From a virus (Duplodnaviria; Caudoviricetes): a stretch of 64,000 nt of DNA. This document shows, piece by piece, positions 1,607-32,810 of the stretch. The position numbers and the translations under genes are program-made. The DNA lies in the IMG/VR virus record IMGVR_UViG_3300042363_000275, positions 1 through 64,000 of that record; one strand, given 5' to 3'. The notes below the pieces were generated by a model, which made no database searches, had not been told where the DNA came from, and saw only the letters and a program-made list of their open reading frames with translations. Numbering within the stretch: position 1 is the stretch's first letter; the number at the start of each line of letters is the position of its first letter.

Positions 1607-1723
1607 CTATTTAGGTTTCTGTTCTTCTTTCTTCTTTCCGAAGATGCGCTCCCAGCTATCATCAAACTGTTTGCGCGGAACACTCAATGGTCTAGGCTTG
1701 CTTCCTTTGCCGCCAGTACTCAT
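1607..1723 (-). CDS. Small hypothetical protein, 38 aa (MSTGGKGSKPRPLSVPRKQFDDSWERIFGKK...)
   Basis: Translated by hand; ATGA overlap with the HNH gene. Confidence 0.55.
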   Translation of the reverse strand: MSTGGKGSKPRPLSVPRKQFDDSWERIFGKKKEEQKPK

Positions 1724-2292
1724 GATACATTTCTCCAAACACGACTGTTCTTTGGAATGCTTGCCTTTAGATATTCCATTTGATCAGCAAGCACTCTACG
1801 ATTCTTCAGCAAGATTCTTTCATGAACAGTCGGCGCATAAGGAACATAGAGAAGATGCATCTTGGCTTCTTCTGGAGTCTTCCATCCCTTACGGTGATTA
1901 CATGTACGGCATGCTGTTACGCAATTAGTCCAGTGATTGCTACCACCACGCGACTTCGGATGAACATGGTCAATCGTCAATTGACTCGTGCTGAATTCAT
2001 TTCCACAATATGCACATAGATGCTGGTCTCGAGCATACAATGTCATGCGATCGGCGAACACTGTTTGTGTGTTGTAGAATTTATCACCAAGCAATGGACC
2101 ACTCACACCAATGATGCAAGAGATGTCAATGCGTGACTGTTCACCATGCTCATTGTGTCCACCAAGCATGGTTTTCATCTTCTCGCCCAATTCCCAGATA
2201 ACCTTCTTCTTGGCATAATAACATGTTGCCATTTCGAAGTTTACCCAGTCTTTAGGCATACCACCTTTGTCTACAACTAACACTAACGACAT
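1720..2292 (-). CDS. HNH endonuclease (McrA-like, CxxC zinc knuckles)
   Basis: CAYCG..TIDHVHPKSRGG..NCVTACRTCNHRKG. Confidence 0.9.
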   Translation of the reverse strand: MSLVLVVDKGGMPKDWVNFEMATCYYAKKKVIWELGEKMKTMLGGHNEHGEQSRIDISCIIGVSGPLLGDKFYNTQTVFADRMTLYARDQHLCAYCGNEFSTSQLTIDHVHPKSRGGSNHWTNCVTACRTCNHRKGWKTPEEAKMHLLYVPYAPTVHERILLKNRRVLADQMEYLKASIPKNSRVWRNVS

Positions 2293-2395: not shown

Positions 2396-2485
2396 TGGCG
2401 GAAGCGGAAGGATTCGAACCTTCGTGACCCGTTAAGATCTGCTTGTTTTCAAGACAAGTGCAATCATCCACTCTGCCACGCTTCC
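2396..2485 (-). tRNA. tRNA-Ser(TGA)
   Basis: CTTGT-CT-TGA-AA-ACAAG; long variable arm; G73-CCA. Confidence 0.95.
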
Positions 2486-2808
2486 TAATTGTTTAGTTTA
2501 TTATATTCCTTCCTGACGAACGAGTCAAGTGCATCTACAATCTTTCTAATTCTATATATTTGATTACCACCAGTTGATTCCAAAGTTTCTGCTTTTAAAG
2601 CATGCAGCATCATCTCAAGATCGTATCCTGAGATTTCTTTTGCTCTAATTTTTACTAATAGATTTCTGTATGCTTTTGCCTGTGGATATACTTGTGAGTT
2701 GTATGAGAAGCCAGATGCTGATGCACCTTTGTTTTCCAACGCATCACATAGCATATCTACATGTGGTTGAAGATCTTCGAATTTAAATTTTTTCGGAGCA
2801 TCGCTCAT
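2485..2808 (-). CDS. Hypothetical protein
   Basis: ORF track; ATGA overlap. Confidence 0.6.
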   Translation of the reverse strand: MSDAPKKFKFEDLQPHVDMLCDALENKGASASGFSYNSQVYPQAKAYRNLLVKIRAKEISGYDLEMMLHALKAETLESTGGNQIYRIRKIVDALDSFVRKEYNKLNN

Positions 2809-3170: not shown

Positions 3171-3749
3171 TTACTTCAACGACTCCATAATGTCATTGTA
3201 TACTTGATCTTGCTTGTCATGTACAAGTTCCCAAATATTCTCAGACCAAAGTTCATTATAAACTTCACTCTGTTCTTCTTGATCAAGTTCCTTGAGCGAC
3301 GGAACCATCTGCTCCATCATCTCTGTGATTTCGCCGTCTTCACCCCACTCACATCCATCAATCATTCCATCTTTGTTGTAAACATATACACCAAAGAAGT
3401 TTGGCATTTCGTCTTCATACATGACGGACGCGATGAAGTCGGGGTCAACAGAAACAATCTGCTCAAAGAGCCACTCTAATCCTGCTTGCGGAAAACTCCA
3501 AGCAGAAACTGTATTGAAATAATCTTCACCACGATCTTCGAAGTAACACCACTTCGGTCCAATGTTTTCTAAATTCCAGTCATACTTATCTGTAATTTCT
3601 GGATCAAGACCGAAGATGTCACTGAACCACTCATAAATGACTGCTTTGTCAGATCCAGTTCGAACGCGCGAGTATAGTTCTTGCAACTTTGCTTTGCCAG
3701 CATCGTTGAGTTTCTCAAAACGAACATGAGTGTTTACATGATTTGCCAT
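3171..3749 (-). CDS. Hypothetical protein, YubB/DUF1281 ferredoxin-like resemblance
   Basis: [18 protein letters not shown] resembles the YDW..NWGTKW..TAWSPP motif. Confidence 0.55.
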
Positions 3750-3962: not shown

Positions 3963-3967
3963 AAGAG

Positions 3968-4058
3968 TGGTCCTTGTCCTGGGTAACGATCCCAGCCGTG
4001 AACGGTAATCTGCCGCTAAAGAGTTTATAAATCTCTCCTGCACCCTGTGCTGACAAGG
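3968..4058 (-). tRNA. Atypical tRNA with TAT anticodon, long variable arm and 3-nt D-loop
   Basis: Acceptor CCTTGTC/GACAAGG; TT-TAT-AA loop; T-arm CTGGG-ATCGTTA-CCCAG; A73-CCA. Confidence 0.7.
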
Positions 4059-4075
4059 ATATTGTTCAATAAAAA

Positions 4076-4151: not shown

Positions 4152-4155
4152 AAAA

Positions 4156-4243
4156 TGGCGGAAGGCAGTGTACTCGAAACACATTCCTGTTTAGGAACAT
4201 TTTGTTTAGCAAACAAATGTGAACCCTGTTCACTTTACCTTCC
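4156..4243 (-). tRNA. tRNA-Ser(GCT)
   Basis: TT-GCT-AA loop; long variable arm; G73-CCA; D-arm GTGAAC-AGG-GTTCAC. Confidence 0.9.
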
Positions 4244-4247
4244 AATA

Positions 4248-4407: not shown

Positions 4408-4481
4408 TGGTGGATCCAAAAGGTAACGCTCCTTTGTCTTTCGATTATCAGTCGAATGTACTTCTTTTGTACTATGGATCC
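4408..4481 (-). tRNA. tRNA-Ile(GAT), atypical D- and T-loops
   Basis: TTCGA-CT-GAT-AA-TCGAA; D-loop AAAAGAA; T-loop AGCGTTA; CCA. Confidence 0.85.
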
Positions 4482-4564: not shown

Positions 4565-4650
4565 GTAATAAATCCCAGTCGATCCACCCTGGATCTTCTC
4601 TCGCTTCTGGGTGCAGCGCTACCGATTAACGATGGTAGAACCGTCGCGAT

Positions 4651-4725
4651 TGGTGCCAAGTGTTGGTATCGCGCCAACCTATCAAGTTCTTCAGACTTGC
4701 GCTAATCTATCTCAGCTAACTTGGC
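4651..4725 (-). tRNA. tRNA-Phe(GAA), atypical T-loop
   Basis: CAAGT-CT-GAA-GA-ACTTG; T-loop CGCGATA; CCA. Confidence 0.85.
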
Positions 4726-4842
4726 GAATTCTTTTACAGGGCAGACCTTTGTTACCTGTCTATGTGCGTACGACACCAACTGCGTTGTTAAGTTATCGCA
4801 ATGTGGAAGGGTAATTACTCCTATTCATTGCTTTTTACAAAT

Positions 4843-4917
4843 TGGAGTGACAGACTGGACTCGAACCAGCATGAAGAAGTTTTGCAGACTTCTGCCTGAC
4901 CTTTCAGCCACCGTCAC
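4843..4917 (-). tRNA. tRNA-Cys(GCA)
   Basis: GAAGT-CT-GCA-AA-ACTTC; T73-CCA. Confidence 0.95.
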
Positions 4918-4926
4918 ATGTTAAAA

Positions 4927-5002
4927 TGGTAGAAACAGTGAGACTCGAACTCACGATAAACACCGTATGAAGGTGGCGCATTAGCCGCTATGCTATGTTT
5001 CT
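4927..5002 (-). tRNA. tRNA-Met(CAT), elongator type
   Basis: TT-CAT-AC loop; paired 1:72; CCA. Confidence 0.8.
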
Positions 5003-5006
5003 ATAT

Positions 5007-5081
5007 TGGGGTGATGACTGGGACTCGAACCCAGATATACCAGGATCACAACCTGGGGACTTACCATTAGTCAACCATCAC
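5007..5081 (-). tRNA. tRNA-His(GTG)
   Basis: CCAGG-TT-GTG-AT-CCTGG; C73-CCA. Confidence 0.95.
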
Positions 5082-5086
5082 ATAAT

Positions 5087-5189
5087 TGGTGGACTGTGTG
5101 GGTAACACTACCACAGTGGCTAGTTTGTTTCTTACAGCCCATTCTATCTTGTTATAGGGACTACCAACCTTCACTGTCTAACTCAGCCC
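5087..5189 (-). ncRNA. tRNA-like RNA with alanine-type acceptor (G3:U70, A73, CCA) and no canonical anticodon loop
   Basis: 5' GGGCTG pairs with 3' CAGTCC-A-CCA; T-arm-like TGTGG..CCACA; spaced like the neighbouring tRNAs. Confidence 0.6.
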
Positions 5190-5195
5190 AAAGAA

Positions 5196-5254
5196 TGGCG
5201 GCATTCACTTTCGTCTTCCGTGCAGAACCAAGCGCACGGACCTGGCTGAATGCC
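5196..5254 (-). ncRNA. 59-nt armless tRNA-like RNA ending in GCCA
   Basis: 8-bp stem GGCATTCA/TGAATGCC plus G-CCA; internal stem TCCGTGC/GCACGGA. Confidence 0.6.
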
Positions 5255-5258
5255 TAAT

Positions 5259-5404
5259 TGGTGTGACAGGGTAGGAGTCGAACCTACATAACCATAGACC
5301 TGCGCAGGTCATTTTGGTGCCAGGCTCACTGACTGGCGTGACTCTCCAAGAGTTTATTCGACATAACTCTATTCTTCACCGCCTGCACATTGTACAAACA
5401 TCAC
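5259..5404 (-). ncRNA. 130-146-nt multi-hairpin tRNA-like RNA with canonical T-arm and CCA
   Basis: GTAGG-TTCGACT-CCTAC T-arm; ..TGTCAC-A-CCA end; internal hairpins AGAGTT/AACTCT, GCCAG/CTGGC, GACCT/AGGTC. Confidence 0.6.
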
Positions 5405-5409
5405 ATAAT

Positions 5410-5496
5410 TGGTGGACAGGGCTAGATTCGAACTAGCGTAACCCATTGGGTGATTGATTTACAGTCAATTGGATTTAACCACTCTCCCACCTGTCC
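5410..5496 (-). tRNA. tRNA-Tyr(GTA)
   Basis: ATTGA-CT-GTA-AA-TCAAT; long variable arm; CCA. Confidence 0.95.
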
Positions 5497-5501
5497 AAAA
5501 A

Positions 5502-5575
5502 TGGCTGAGGGACCTGGACTCGAACCAGGACTCTCTGGGTCAAAGCCAGATGATCTGCCATTAATCTATCCCTCA
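5502..5575 (-). tRNA. tRNA-Gln(TTG)
   Basis: TCTGG-CT-TTG-AC-CCAGA; CCA. Confidence 0.95.
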
Positions 5576-5582
5576 AAAAAGA

Positions 5583-5691
5583 TTTGCTGCTTGCACTCTA
5601 TGCTATCGACTCAACTGCTTTACAATTGATTACAGTTTATTGTGATAGTTACATAACGCTCGATCTAGCCTCTGGGCTTACAAGCAACAAA
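5583..5691 (-). ncRNA. Candidate structured ncRNA between tRNA-Val and tRNA-Gln
   Basis: 13-bp closing stem TTTGTTGCTTGTA/TGCAAGCAGCAAA with two G-U pairs; inner stems AGCC/GGCT, ATCGA/TCGAT, AACTG/CAGTT. Confidence 0.45.
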
Positions 5692-5693
5692 AT

Positions 5694-5769
5694 TGGTACT
5701 CGGTGACGGGTTCGAACCGCCGACATTCTGGATGTAAACCAGACACTCTACCAACTGAGTTAACCGAGC
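5694..5769 (-). tRNA. tRNA-Val(TAC)
   Basis: TCTGG-TT-TAC-AT-CCAGA; CCA. Confidence 0.95.
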
Positions 5770-5773
5770 AAAA

Positions 5774-5848
5774 TGGTGGACCGTGGGAGAATCGAACTCC
5801 CTTCTCTGCGATGCAAACGCAGCATAATACCCAGTATACTAACAGCCC
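5774..5848 (-). tRNA. tRNA-Ala(TGC)
   Basis: TT-TGC-AT loop; G3:U70; A73-CCA. Confidence 0.95.
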
Positions 5849-5853
5849 AAAAA

Positions 5854-5928
5854 TGGCTGGCGCGGGTGGGATCGAACCACCGACAGGCTGATTAACAGTC
5901 AGCTGATCTACCGCTGATCTACGCGCCA
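5854..5928 (-). tRNA. tRNA-Asn(GTT)
   Basis: GCTGA-CT-GTT-AA-TCAGC; CCA. Confidence 0.95.
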
Positions 5929-6036
5929 AAATAGCTGCGGTGTAAGTAACCACCGCTCCTGCTCTTTTCTTTAGGTAGAGTCACACACCGTATCCCATTA
6001 TTAAGTGCGGGAGTTCTCACACTATGCATTAGGAAA

Positions 6037-6110
6037 TGGCATCCCGCCACAGAATCGAACTGCGACCAAGAGTTTTGGAGACTCGTATGCTACCACTACA
6101 CCAGCGGGAA
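6037..6110 (-). tRNA. tRNA-Trp(CCA)
   Basis: CT-CCA-AA loop; G73-CCA. Confidence 0.9.
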
Positions 6111-6122
6111 ACAATCACAAAA

Positions 6123-6196
6123 TGGTAGGAGTAGAGGGAATCGAACCCTCGTCGAAGGATTAAAAGTCCTATGCTAGACCTTCCAGCTATACTCCC
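6123..6196 (-). tRNA. tRNA-Lys(TTT)
   Basis: CT-TTT-AA loop; CCA. Confidence 0.95.
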
Positions 6197-6214
6197 AAAA
6201 AACATAACAAAAAT

Positions 6215-6290
6215 TGGTGGGTCTAACAGGATTCGAACCTGTATCAAACTGGGTAAGAGCCAGATATAATTGCCATTATACGATAGACCC
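6215..6290 (-). tRNA. tRNA-Lys(CTT)
   Basis: CT-CTT-AC loop; CCA. Confidence 0.9.
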
Positions 6291-6295
6291 GAAAT

Positions 6296-6370
6296 TGGCG
6301 TTCCCTACGAGATTCGAACTCGTGTACTCACCGTGAAAGGGTGACATCCTGACCGCTAGATGAAGGGAAC
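6296..6370 (-). tRNA. tRNA-Glu(TTC)
   Basis: TCACC-CT-TTC-AC-GGTGA; CCA. Confidence 0.95.
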
Positions 6371-6380
6371 ATAAAAACCA

Positions 6381-6462
6381 TATTGAAACACACTAGAAGT
6401 AATATTAACGACCTTTACTTTTATCACTGGGACGGTCAAGCAGGGTCTAATGTGCTTCAATA
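6381..6462 (-). ncRNA. Candidate structured ncRNA between tRNA-Thr and tRNA-Glu
   Basis: 17-bp closing stem TATTGAAGCACATTAGA/TCTAGTGTGTTTCAATA with two G-U pairs; inner GACC/GGTC. Confidence 0.45.
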
Positions 6463-6537
6463 TGGTGCCTCCACTCGGAATCGAACTGAGTTCTCAGGCT
6501 TACAAAACCCGTGCATCACCATTTATGCTTTGAAGGC
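6463..6537 (-). tRNA. tRNA-Thr(TGT)
   Basis: CGGGT-TT-TGT-AA-GCCTG; CCA. Confidence 0.95.
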
Positions 6538-6682
6538 GAATCTTGACATCTGCCCCAACTCCCGCAGATATCGGTGGCTTCCCACGCAAGAATATGCGCT
6601 TCGAAACCTTACCCAGAAACCTAATTTTTAAAACAGCAAGAGCAATCGCAGCGGACGCTCTATCTATCAACTCAATACAGTC

Positions 6683-6743
6683 ATTATACCGCTACAAGAG
6701 TCGAAAGTAAAACATAAAAAACTTTAATAAAATCAATAACTTA
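6683..6743 (-). promoter_or_regulatory. tRNA-operon promoter (TTTACT-17-TATAAT) with upstream IHF-consensus box
   Basis: Hexamers at 6706-6711 and 6683-6688; AATCAATAACTTA at 6731-6743. Confidence 0.75.
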
Positions 6744-8209: not shown

Positions 8210-8323
8210 CTTCTCATTCCACAACGGAAGAAATTCGTCGACTCGTTCCGTCCAATCTGGTGGGAAATTCTGGTCACACCAAGCATCAGTTGCAGTCACA
8301 AGTTCTTCGATTCTATTGCTCAT
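8066..8323 (-). CDS. Hypothetical protein, AALVAAAEREACA family, copy 2
   Basis: ORF track. Confidence 0.7.
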   Translation of the reverse strand: MSNRIEELVTATDAWCDQNFPPDWTERVDEFLPLWNEKFAALVAAAEREACARVCEERVGYWQRDDIRRDEDENCAAAIRARGSK

Positions 8324-8766
8324 TCAACCAACTCCAAAACAAATTCACCATCTTTCACGGTGACATTCACAAACTTACCACCACTTGAGCGAGTGTAGTC
8401 GCGACCACCATCGATAAAATGTCCACCCTTCTGAACGAAGTCATGGCGATAACGACTGACAATCACTTCACCGTTATCAGTCAGAATGCCAACAATTGTC
8501 TCGCTGAAGGCAAACTTTGCATCTGTGATATACGGTCTACCATCTCTTTTATTGAGAAACAATCCGAAGTAATGGGAGTGACCCTTCGACAAATCAGGAT
8601 TTGGCTGATAGAATACATCGACTGGAGTTTCGTTCCATTGACCATCTGGCTTTTTGGTCACCCAGTACCCCATATACTTGGCACCGTAATGTGCCTCGGC
8701 GCGAGCGATACCGCTCTTGGTCAGATGATAACCTTCTTCGGGAGTCTTGATAAACATTTTACTCAT
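8320..8766 (-). CDS. Hypothetical phage protein (YRHDF..IDGGRDY motif)
   Basis: ORF track; directly downstream of a promoter. Confidence 0.7.
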   Translation of the reverse strand: MSKMFIKTPEEGYHLTKSGIARAEAHYGAKYMGYWVTKKPDGQWNETPVDVFYQPNPDLSKGHSHYFGLFLNKRDGRPYITDAKFAFSETIVGILTDNGEVIVSRYRHDFVQKGGHFIDGGRDYTRSSGGKFVNVTVKDGEFVLELVE

Positions 8767-30776: not shown

Positions 30777-32810
30777 CTATTTAGAAGTGGCACGATAAAC
30801 TCCGTCCCAATTCACAGGCGGTTTGCCATCCATTCTCTCGTCCATCATCTCATAGTATTTAGCCATTTCACCATCCCATAACACTTTCATTGCAGGGACC
30901 AAATTCCTAGCAATTTTCCAGTTACCTGCACGATAATGTAACAGGAAGTTTTCGTGCATATAGAGAGCTGATTTGTCGTCATCAGGCGCGATCGTGAAGA
31001 TCTTTACAGGTTCAGTTTTACCCTTCACCGCAATTAGATCTAATTCGATAACTGGGAACTCACCCTTCACATACTCTGCAGTTTTAGGACCAATGACAAT
31101 TTTAACACCATAAGGTTTAGATTGACCTTCGAGGCGAGCTGCTAGGTTAACTCCATCTCCCAAACAAGTGTAGTCAAACCTTTGTGTAGAACCCATATTG
31201 CCAACAACCACAGTATCGGTATTAATACCCAATCCCATGCCGAATGCTGGAACACCTTCTTTAGCAATTTCTTCATTGAATTTCTCCAGATCCTTGAGCA
31301 TTGCTAAACCAGTACGAACAGCATTCTTTGCGTGCTGTGCATCATCCAATGGTGCATTCCAAAATGCCATCTGAGCATCGCCGATATACTTGTCCAGCGT
31401 GCCTTGATTTTCAATAATCCTTGCAGTCATTGCCGTCATATAACGATTCATGATTGCAGTCAGACCTTGAACATTCTTGCCGTAGTGCTCAGAAATTGTT
31501 GTGAATCCACGCACATCAGTAAACATGATTGAAAGTTCACGTGACTCACCGCCGAGTGCAAGTAACTCTGGATTCTTTTGTAGTTTTTCAACCATAGCTG
31601 GTGAAAGATAAGTGCCAAACTGCTTCTTAATTTGTTGCTTCTGTAGGAACTCAGAAACAAACTTCACACCATAAGCATGAAGTGCAACAAGAATTAATCC
31701 TAAAGTAACAGCTGTTGGATCAAATAAGAACAACGAAGTCTTAAACGCATACAAACTATATGCTACACCAGAGCCAATTAGAATCACAGTTGATGCGAGT
31801 CCAACATAAACCCAACGCGATAGCCCTATTAGCAATAGACCAGCAAGTAAAAGTGCAAGAATTTCAAGTGACTCTGCATAATCTGGACGCTGAATGTTCA
31901 CGCCGTTAATCATCGTTGCCACAACAGCAGCTTGCATATCCTGCGGCATCACTGGACCAATTGCTGTCGGCACTGGGTTTGCTAAACCTGCTGCAGAAAC
32001 ACCAACGATAACTAATGCACCGTCAAATTTTTCTGGTAGATCTACCATCGAAACCTTTTTATTCTTTTGCGACCAGTCTACCCACACACGACCATAAGAG
32101 TCTGTTGATACTGGACCGAACTGTGGAATGCGCATTTTCTCAACACCAAACTCATTCAGTTTAACTTGAAAGTTTGGATCACCTGCCATCACACGGAGGA
32201 TTTCTAAAGATAGATGTGGATAAAGAATGCCATTAACAGAAACAATTAATGGCACTCGACGATTCACACCGTCAATTTCTGGAAGAGTGTGTGTTGCACC
32301 AACGCCTGCTGCAGCGTTTTCGAGTTCAGGAATATTCGCAATGATTCCTGGATACTGTAAAATCGTATCTTCGAACTCAGAACCAATAATTGCTGCGCCT
32401 GGATTTTTCGGCGAGTTCTTTGTTGCTGTTGATGGAACATTTGGAAGAATAACTGGTGCTTGTTGCATCACATCGAGTAATGCTTGGTCACCACCTAGAC
32501 GATCAGATTCTGGCATGAGCACATTGAAAACAACTAACCCTGCGCCCCGATTATAAAGTTCAGCAATTAAATTTGCATACACATCACGCTTAAATGGATA
32601 TTGCCCATACTTTTCCAAAGCAGCTTCGTCGATGTTTACGGTATAAACATTGTTTTCTGTTACTGGTTTGTTTGCAATAAGAGTATCAAAATATCGGAGT
32701 CGGACGGACTCTACGAATTGAGGGTCAGATACTCTGATAGATAATACTATAGCAAGAGTTAATAACGCAGTCCAAGCACTGAGTGCAACTTTATTCAATA
32801 ACTTTTTCAT
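30777..32810 (-). CDS. CHASE2-domain class III adenylate cyclase
   Basis: N-terminal TM; periplasmic CHASE2-like region; 3 TMs; MFTDVRGFT, DKYIGDA, FDYTCLGDGVNLAARLE. Confidence 0.92.
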   Translation of the reverse strand: MKKLLNKVALSAWTALLTLAIVLSIRVSDPQFVESVRLRYFDTLIANKPVTENNVYTVNIDEAALEKYGQYPFKRDVYANLIAELYNRGAGLVVFNVLMPESDRLGGDQALLDVMQQAPVILPNVPSTATKNSPKNPGAAIIGSEFEDTILQYPGIIANIPELENAAAGVGATHTLPEIDGVNRRVPLIVSVNGILYPHLSLEILRVMAGDPNFQVKLNEFGVEKMRIPQFGPVSTDSYGRVWVDWSQKNKKVSMVDLPEKFDGALVIVGVSAAGLANPVPTAIGPVMPQDMQAAVVATMINGVNIQRPDYAESLEILALLLAGLLLIGLSRWVYVGLASTVILIGSGVAYSLYAFKTSLFLFDPTAVTLGLILVALHAYGVKFVSEFLQKQQIKKQFGTYLSPAMVEKLQKNPELLALGGESRELSIMFTDVRGFTTISEHYGKNVQGLTAIMNRYMTAMTARIIENQGTLDKYIGDAQMAFWNAPLDDAQHAKNAVRTGLAMLKDLEKFNEEIAKEGVPAFGMGLGINTDTVVVGNMGSTQRFDYTCLGDGVNLAARLEGQSKPYGVKIVIGPKTAEYVKGEFPVIELDLIAVKGKTEPVKIFTIAPDDDKSALYMHENFLLHYRAGNWKIARNLVPAMKVLWDGEMAKYYEMMDERMDGKPPVNWDGVYRATSK

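Follow-up and report, generated by a model that had tools for sequence, protein, structure and literature searches.

Small RNAs derived from a phage tRNA region (T4 RNAC and RNAD) and large RNAs located near tRNA islands (GOLLD and ROOL) are both already known. RNAC and RNAD, also termed species 1 and 2 RNAs, are reportedly released by tRNA-processing enzymes. Both come from the tRNA region of phage T4 (PMC3014915). GOLLD and ROOL are phage-borne, often occur near tRNA islands and are possibly co-transcribed with them (PMC5737381). Both are described as large, GOLLD often exceeding 800 nt, and their homo-oligomers assemble partly via kissing loops into cages (PMC12286853). Here we describe a tRNA array with a conserved leader and inserts (I1 to I5) between its tRNAs, located on the minus strand of a 64,000-nt stretch (hereafter the window) that comprises the first 64 kb of the Caudoviricetes record IMGVR_UViG_3300042363_000275 in IMG/VR. 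With a probability of roughly 0.7, the region is transcribed into a single long, untranslated polycistronic RNA that combines the role of a tRNA operon with the delivery of other small structured RNAs. Like T4 RNAC and RNAD, the inserts would be small stable RNAs from a phage tRNA region; unlike them, they comprise several families, with CCA-anchored clamps, swappable cargo and an antitermination-type leader, features that set them apart by description.

The full contig measures 74.9 kb, with a CheckV completeness of 45%. Because the DnaB-type helicase of the window shares 61-64% identity with homologues of T4-like cyanophages and the Methylophilales phage Melnitz, its source is assigned to the uncultured aquatic T4-like phages. 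In agreement with the minus-strand array recognized in the initial annotation, ARAGORN identified 24 tRNAs between positions 2313 and 6537, and Rfam detected 26 tRNAs in the window, two of them (4654-4725 and 1519-1591) beyond the ARAGORN set. CCA is encoded in every tRNA of the array. In the order of transcription, the array consists of the leader (6676-6538), Thr, I1 (92 nt), Glu, Lys, Lys, Trp, I2 (108 nt), Asn, Ala, Val, I3 (118 nt), Gln, Tyr, I4 (328 nt), His, Met, Cys, I5 (278 nt), Arg and onward, and its insert-free junctions are A/T-rich and 4-18 nt long, mostly 4-6 nt. The coordinates of the main features are given in Table 1. A promoter-like site precedes the leader, and the TTTACTT...TATAAT form is also found ahead of the homologous leader in most relatives. 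The initial annotation had placed the tRNAs and inserts under this single promoter, which is tenable from 6711 to approximately 3900; beyond that point, further strong promoter-like sites are present on the minus strand (3884-3856 and 2528-2500, with 10 and 11 of 12 consensus matches), and the array as a whole probably comprises several transcription units. The inserts proved free of open reading frames (ORFs), as had been stated: no ORF of at least 60 aa was found inside any insert, and, on sequence inspection, frames of 30-56 aa either overlap tRNAs or lack a ribosome-binding site.

Table 1. Features of the leader and inserts of the tRNA array, in order of transcription.
Feature	Positions	Strand	Description or basis
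Promoter-like site	6683-6711	-	TTTACT-17-TATAAT; 10/12 consensus matches
Leader hairpin, boxB-like position	6639-6661	-	Stem AGAGC/GCTCT, conserved GUCC..GCGA loop; 5/5 pairs compensatory in 24 sequences
BoxA-like element GCTGTTTTAAA	6627-6637	-	Scored against GYTCTTTAANA
Three-stem leader element	6543-6615	-	UGGGUAAGG, P1, P2 (UAUUC loop), P3 (GGGAGUUGGGG loop); model R1, alignment A3
I1 clamp cassette	6371-6465	-	5' arm 6447-6465, cargo 6397-6446, 3' arm 6378-6396
I2, orphan spacer	5929-6036	-	z -1.3; terminal hairpin 5937-5956
I3	5576-5693	-	P1, 5681-5691 with 5583-5593; P2 loop with GAUC in 5658-5670
I3 P4 apical loop UAAUCAAUUGUAAAG	within 5618-5633	-	Contains palindrome CAAUUG
19-nt direct repeat GTCCACCAATTATGTGATG	5399-5417 and 5076-5094	-	Copies bracket I4
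I4 unit AB, 130-nt tRNA-Tyr-derived RNA, single gene	5259-5388	-	Alignment to tRNA-Tyr
I4 unit C, 59-nt armless minihelix	5196-5254	-	8-bp acceptor-like stem, 8-bp inner hairpin, GCCA end
I4 unit D, 103-nt tRNA-like RNA	5087-5189	-	Sequence reading and predicted fold
I5a, unstructured orphan spacer	4726-4842	-	z +0.3
Non-canonical tRNA-Phe(GAA)	4651-4725	-	T-loop CGCGAUA; Rfam tRNA 45.7 bits; missed by ARAGORN
I5b, two-hairpin module directly after CCA end	4565-4650	-	5' palindrome UCGCGA 4644-4649; conserved hairpin 4619-4638

Fold z-scores were calculated for both strands against dinucleotide shuffles. I1 (z -4.05 on the transcribed strand vs -1.65 on the other), I3 (-2.9 vs -0.9) and the leader (-2.6 vs -0.6) folded better than their shuffles, in each case on the transcribed strand only. 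I2, I4 and I5 as wholes folded no better than dinucleotide shuffles, and of the sub-units, I4 unit C reached z -2.6, with I4 units AB and D, I5a, I5b and I2 not significant. Searches with Rfam 15 returned no family match for the window inserts up to an E value of 5, GOLLD, ROOL and YrlA included; at both gathering and permissive thresholds the window yielded tRNAs alone, and the related loci yielded tRNAs plus one GOLLD and nothing else. Furthermore, megablast and blastn of the region against GenBank phages returned tRNA matches only, and no description of these RNA families was found in the searched literature. Statistical or comparative support for real RNAs is limited to the leader, I1, I3 and I5b, and the four corresponding families, namely the leader element, the clamp cassette, the I3 family and I5b, are absent from Rfam. 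Where at least five structured inserts had been claimed, these four are retained, and I2 and I5a, which lack both significant folds and homologues, are not. Conservation was likewise found for the leader, the I1 clamp, I3 and I5b and was lacking for I2, I5a and the I4 trio.

The closing stem of I1 (CCAUAUUGAAGCACAUUAG / CUAGUGUGUUUCAAUAUGG) consists of 19 contiguous pairs with CCA:UGG included, the first three bases of the 5' arm being the CCA of tRNA-Thr. The G-U pairs noted earlier in the closing stems were recovered both here (6378-6465, 19 bp, two G-U) and in I3 (5583-5691, 11 bp, one G-U), and both elements have the better fold on the transcribed strand. The pattern of the I1 3' arm is present in at least 119 IMG/VR contigs, often in multiple copies per contig. 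Among the matches listed, 175 physical cassettes were identified, of which 166 are located within 1.5 kb of a tRNA, and on the tRNA-sense strand their stems contain G-U and A-C combinations in a ratio of 286:13. As the cassette search was blind to tRNA orientation, this bias is strong evidence that selection on the clamp stem acts on the RNA. The interiors of the cassettes listed span 25-177 nt, and their cargoes form 154 clusters in 211 strand-specific reads (approximately 101 distinct without mirror duplicates), mostly singletons; no homologues of the I1 cargo itself were found, the arms alone aligning. Near-identical arms in very different phages with differing cargo, the mosaic module content of close relatives and the location of I4 within a 19-nt direct repeat would also suit stems that act as mobile or recombination elements at the DNA level, such as inverted repeats similar to miniature inverted-repeat transposable elements or homology handles, without any RNA function. 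However, the 286:13 strand bias is not expected of DNA inverted repeats, and the stems of the I3 family vary in sequence with pairing kept, so that a purely DNA-level explanation appears improbable, even though both roles could coexist.

I3 homologues identified by blastn carry closing stems that have changed in compensating fashion, and a conserved-core pattern matched at least 119 further contigs. Among the matches listed, the family comprises 85 distinct members, which fall into 31 clusters at approximately 86% similarity, and each of the 85 searched loci gave a single match. When RNAalifold was applied to raw MAFFT alignments, inner helices were lost through misalignment, and realignment with covariance models was used instead. 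In the resulting alignment A6 (model R2, 85 members), 91.5% of cells are paired and 25 of 28 pairs have changed on both sides, with 484 cells affected by such changes vs 126 in shuffles. The covariation score of 0.59, which compares with 0.175 in shuffles and 0.07-0.12 with slid partners, was reached by none of 500 shuffles, and the ratio of G-U to A-C in the family is 76:17. The core consists of the helices P1, P3 and P4 and the invariant unpaired motifs UGUAAGC, GUAAC, UGAG and AAUAGUGC; P2 is short and poorly aligned, with a paired fraction of 56%. The closing stem begins at a CCA in most members, and in two loci (L413 and L435) it is the I1-type stem itself, which identifies I3 as one cargo family of the clamp-cassette system. 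The I3-like elements of seven related loci had no Rfam match up to an E value of 0.1.

The apical loop of I3 P4 is 15-19 nt long and contains a palindrome of at least 6 nt in 85 of 85 members (6 nt in 32, 8 nt in 51 and 10 nt in two), compared with 21% of shuffled loops. The palindromes take 24 distinct forms, including CAAUUG in the window, CUCGAG, UCUAGA, GUGGCCAC and CCGGCCGG. In addition, the P2 region holds a palindrome of 4-6 nt in 82 of 85 members vs 55% in shuffles, most commonly UGAUCA, with GAUC in the window. Palindromes as a general property of cassette cargoes were ruled out (59% vs 59% in shuffles), and the absence of an excess there makes the signal specific to the I3 family rather than a product of base composition. 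Since a palindrome without a spacer cannot fold on itself and is kept here while its sequence varies, pairing between two I3 copies is the simplest reading. The P4 loop thus most likely mediates kissing-loop homodimers or multimers, as its self-complementarity throughout the family suggests, and a second contact via the P2 palindrome, and hence multimers, is possible. Kissing-loop RNA dimers, on which a review exists (PMC7357161), include the HIV-1 dimerisation initiation site. With this site I3 shares a 6-nt self-complementary apical loop with A-rich unpaired flanks that is variant yet always palindromic; unlike it, I3 is a small phage RNA, and its P2 may provide a further palindromic loop through which multimers could form. 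Compared with the large GOLLD and ROOL, I3 measures only approximately 90-120 nt, and its self-association is predicted from the palindromic loops alone. One related locus, L339, contains a GOLLD (6249-6711, RF02032, 197 bits) with an embedded tRNA, approximately 0.4 kb downstream of its I3-like element.

Taken to its full extent, the proposal would be that I3-type RNAs constitute a new, widespread class of small phage RNAs (at least 119 uncultured phage contigs) that assemble with copies of themselves, pairing through one self-complementary loop or two, to give dimers or closed multimers resembling the ROOL and GOLLD cages on a small scale; tRNA operons would deliver them in exchangeable clamp cassettes of the RNase III type, behind an antitermination leader like that of rRNA operons. 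We regard this as tentative, with somewhat less than an even chance of being correct. The conserved elements might instead be cis-acting processing or transcription signals for tRNA maturation, with the excised pieces degraded and without a role in trans. The clamp stems do pair with the tRNA CCA exactly at tRNA junctions, the I1 cargo is unconserved and the leader plausibly functions only in antitermination or processing; moreover, RNase III releases a tRNA in E. coli's metY-nusA-infB operon, according to a reference cited in PMC5371410. Such signals would not, however, account for the interior of I3, which is conserved far beyond the stem: its unpaired motifs are invariant, its three inner helices covary and its palindromes keep their position in 85 of 85 members, and many junctions of relatives are insert-free (1-14 nt), which argues that tRNA maturation is independent of the inserts. 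An exclusively cis-acting role is therefore considered unlikely.

Homologues of the leader were found as 24 distinct sequences in IMG/VR and metagenomes, mostly with a tRNA immediately downstream. The boxA consensus of gamma-proteobacteria is GYTCTTTAANA (PMC5725501), and the leader homologues match it perfectly in 7 of 24 cases and with one mismatch, always at the same position, in 13 of 24, so that 20 of 24 deviate at a single fixed position at most, compared with background rates per 60 nt of 0.0012 (perfect) and 0.0087 (one mismatch). The subsequent three-stem element stops 5 nt short of tRNA-Thr, and its P3 loop is invariant among the homologues. The model-fitted alignment A3 shows pairing in 88.5% of its cells and changes on both sides in 14 of 25 pairs; the covariation score and paired fraction were reached by none of 500 shuffles, and pairing falls to 37-55% when partners are slid. 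The ratio of G-U to A-C in the leader is 54:17. A G-quadruplex was ruled out, as the second G-tract is not conserved, and so was a short ORF from an ATG in the P3 stem, which relatives lack. As in the leader of rRNA operons (boxB-boxA-boxC, Nus/SuhB), a hairpin and then a boxA-like sequence follow just past the promoter of a long untranslated operon. In contrast to the rRNA leader, the boxA of the window has two mismatches, no boxC was recognized in the leader and a conserved three-stem element stands in its place. By this analogy, the leader would be an antitermination leader in the style of rRNA operons followed by a conserved RNA element, and the boxA match is the reason to propose that antitermination depends on Nus factors.

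According to the favored reading of the array as a delivery vehicle, transcription would begin at the promoter at 6711-6683, and the hairpin and boxA-like leader would probably recruit the Nus antitermination complex of the host, enabling escape from Rho as in rRNA operons. RNase P acting at tRNA 5' ends and RNase E or exonucleases acting after the encoded CCA would then free the pieces between the tRNAs, a release that is expected because established tRNA processing cuts the flanking tRNAs. A stem of 16-20 bp starting from the upstream CCA closes I1 and most I3 relatives and most likely acts as an RNase III stalk and as a clamp that protects the ends. Approximately two turns of near-perfect double-stranded RNA formed from the flanks, as in an RNase III stalk, are present in I1 (19 pairs) and in the I3 family, whose closing stems have 16 pairs and are 95.8% paired. 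Similar to the RNase III stalks of rRNA, these long stems join both ends of the RNA to be excised, and on this analogy RNase III cutting would leave the cargo clamped. The cargoes would be exchangeable modules, among them I3, predicted to form dimers or multimers, and I5b with a similar palindrome. A by-product of tRNA processing with a function of its own, as proposed here, has a counterpart in the 3' external transcribed spacer (3'ETS) of leuZ in E. coli, which reportedly acts as a small RNA (sRNA) sponge, a finding attributed to Lalaouna et al. 2015; the leuZ RNA pairs with sRNAs through Hfq. The initial annotation had proposed functional non-coding RNAs that are carried in the tRNA operon and freed by tRNA processing, acting as decoys, sponges or anti-defence RNAs. 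This proposal is partly supported, since covariation, strand-specific G-U pairs and wide distribution favor it for four elements; for I2 and I5a it lacks support, and for the I4 trio its support is weak. The functional clue from the palindromic loops of I3 would instead point towards self-association and away from decoy, sponge or anti-defence roles.

I4 contains the three CCA-ended tRNA-like units in tandem that had been described at the outset, all of which end in NCCA on a terminal stem of 6-8 bp. Unit AB aligns to the tRNA-Tyr of L083 and L279 with 41 and 33 bits, respectively, compared with shuffle maxima of 27 and 31. It carries two insertions that form perfect hairpins, one of 24 nt in the D-loop (5350-5373) and a palindromic one of 14 nt in the variable arm (5297-5310). 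The anticodon loop (within 5320-5336) has changed from CUGUAAA to CAGUGAG, so that position 33 is an A, and the 31-39 pair is disrupted. Both the D-stem and the T-arm are preserved, and the acceptor stem has seven pairs with one bulge and an ACCA end. Unit C shows no tRNA resemblance. The acceptor of unit D (GGGCUG/CAGUCC) provides G1-C72, G2-C71, G3:U70 and A73, followed by CCA, of which G3:U70 and A73 form the alanine identity set. Unit D has a non-canonical T-like arm and lacks a 7-nt anticodon loop; its fold is not significant (z -0.7), and its 3' end is tRNA-Ala-like with a score no better than shuffles. With these acceptor features and no anticodon loop it resembles the tRNA-like domain of transfer-messenger RNA (tmRNA) and the alanine minihelices charged by alanyl-tRNA synthetase; unlike tmRNA, it contains no tag reading frame and its T-loop is non-canonical. 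Neither RF00005 (E value up to 5) nor ARAGORN called a tRNA in 5082-5409.

Since it scores above the shuffle controls, unit AB is regarded as tRNA-derived; the claim of descent is limited to AB, units C and D appearing tRNA-like by their ends. Two IMG/VR pattern scans for I4 returned only sequences without tRNA-like context, which are read as chance matches in coding DNA. The I4 units would accordingly be young or lineage-specific tRNA derivatives that keep tRNA-like ends, and they could function as tRNA mimics. Decay offers another account, by which all inserts are debris, such as tRNA pseudogenes and scars of homing endonucleases or recombination. This would fit the Tyr-like AB with its insertions, damaged anticodon loop and A33, the unstructured orphans I2 and I5a, and the presence of an HNH endonuclease gene within the array. 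It is, however, excluded by covariation and wide conservation for the leader, the I3 family, I5b and the clamp stems, and AB retains its acceptor stem, D-stem, T-arm and CCA, with insertions that are perfect hairpins. As an explanation for all inserts, decay is thus highly improbable.

The 278-nt region between Cys and Arg (4565-4842) is not a single insert but comprises I5a, a real, non-canonical tRNA-Phe(GAA) with 78-80% identity to annotated tRNA-Phe genes of T5-like phages, and I5b. I5b, on its 3' side, was found as six sequences in five distinct contigs including the window, each located right after a CCA end (that of a tRNA where recognizable). Its 5' 6-mer is palindromic in six of six sequences (UCGCGA, CUGCAG or UUGCAA), so that a self-complementary segment is kept as its sequence varies, as in kissing loops, and the second stem covaries (CCCAG/CUGGG, CCUGG/CCAGG, CUUGG/CCAAG). 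The downstream GCGAGA was ruled out as an intramolecular partner of the palindrome, with no covariation between the two. Both I2 and I5a probably represent simple spacers or remnants of recombination; the last 34 nt of I2 are its only recurring part, found in L009, and its terminal hairpin was flagged as terminator-like in a simple scan.

Several observations weigh against the reading of the array as a delivery vehicle for structured RNAs. No homologues of I4 were found by blastn in approximately 480 fetched loci, and neither of the closest relatives, L117 (G001) and L183, has I4; in both, Tyr is followed by 5 nt and His. I2 has no homologues beyond its terminal hairpin, and I5a recurs only in L166, in identical form. 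The leader and a representative of the I3 family gave no blastn match in 50,697 GenBank phage records, leaving no cultured relative with these RNAs, and the shuffle controls for covariation ignore phylogeny. Furthermore, the boxA copy of the window with its two mismatches was scored against a gamma-proteobacterial consensus, which may not be that of the host. The I3 clamp of the window has 11 pairs and does not include the CCA, for which reason the RNase III idea suits I1 better than I3. Natural RNase III sites follow no strict sequence consensus, and their specificity is not readable from sequence (PMC5371410). No RNase III gene was found on the contig, which is only 45% complete and for which the host enzyme would serve; a gene for a CCA-adding enzyme was likewise not found on this 45% complete contig.

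The related loci document the exchange of modules. With a flanking protein (8320-8766) as the starting point, 58 related loci were collected from IMG/VR, and more were obtained via motif scans and record look-ups. The order Thr-Glu-Lys-Trp-Asn-Ala-(Val)-Gln-Tyr is common to approximately 10 phages, whose arrays are mosaic in that each junction may lack an insert (1-14 nt) or hold 90-1000 nt. The conserved blocks of the G001 array are 86-97% identical to those of the window, with one short tRNA match at 74%; its I1 has the same arms and a different cargo, I3 is kept, I4 is wholly absent and other inserts are found elsewhere. Two conserved inserts were observed in relatives: a structured one of approximately 230-260 nt (starting with AAAUAUGCCCGAAGCC), which the window lacks, at the Ala/Gln junction of L038 (12488-12749), L039 (12989-13333), G004 and G003, and one of approximately 160 nt at the Asn/Ala junction of G003, G004, L039 and L082. 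The insert between Glu and Lys/Trp in L038 (12065-12168), L039 (12413-12515) and L082 (2551-2658) resembles a tRNA-Lys(UUU) gene of non-canonical form, in which the anticodon loop reads CUUUUAA and the T-loop AGCGUUA, and was missed by ARAGORN; no Lys(UUU) was called by ARAGORN in these three loci. ARAGORN also called permuted (two-piece) tmRNA genes in L046, L056, L057 and L066, and no tmRNA in the window. In L066 it further called a 90-nt 'tRNA-Pyl' with a CUA anticodon, a possible amber suppressor.

Other RNAs of the window array also have non-canonical tRNA features. The 96-nt spacer between Asp and Arg (4152-4247, minus strand) folds as a class II tRNA (z -3.5) that both ARAGORN and Rfam miss. 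Its anticodon loop is UUGCUAA (GCU, Ser), its variable arm is long, its T-loop is canonical and it ends in GCCA; it is kept in G003, G004, L038 and L039, and its top tRNA match is Ser(gct). At 3963-4075 (minus strand), a class-II-like tRNA-shaped RNA (z -2.5) was identified with the 9-nt loop AUUUAUAAA, the non-canonical T-loop AUCGUUA and an ACCA end, the homologues of which in other phages are called 'tRNA-Ile(tat)' of 91-95 nt by ARAGORN. The T-loop-like sequence RNYGUUA (AGCGUUA, AUCGUUA, AGUGUUA) replaces the usual UUCGAAU at four minus-strand sites of the window, namely tRNA-Ile (4408-4481), the UAU class II RNA (3963-4075), the I5b hairpin (4619-4638) and unit D (5087-5120). The HNH endonuclease ORF inside the array (1720-2292, minus strand; PF14279, PF01844) is a candidate homing endonuclease, and two further ORFs without family match (3171-3749 and 2485-2808, minus strand) interrupt the array. 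Outside the array, the window encodes a membrane protein that combines a CHASE2 sensor domain with a nucleotide cyclase domain of class III (30777-32810, minus strand; Pfam E values of 1e-37 and 6e-18).

The tRNA clusters of phages are generally interpreted as sets of tRNAs for codon supply or anti-defence. The array described here suggests that they additionally serve as a general expression platform for other structured RNAs, with a common leader, a common clamp and swappable cargo, and the predicted self-association of I3 would link small RNAs to the RNA-only assemblies of GOLLD and ROOL. Furthermore, as several non-canonical tRNAs escape automatic finders, the 'spacers' of phage tRNA clusters merit re-examination.

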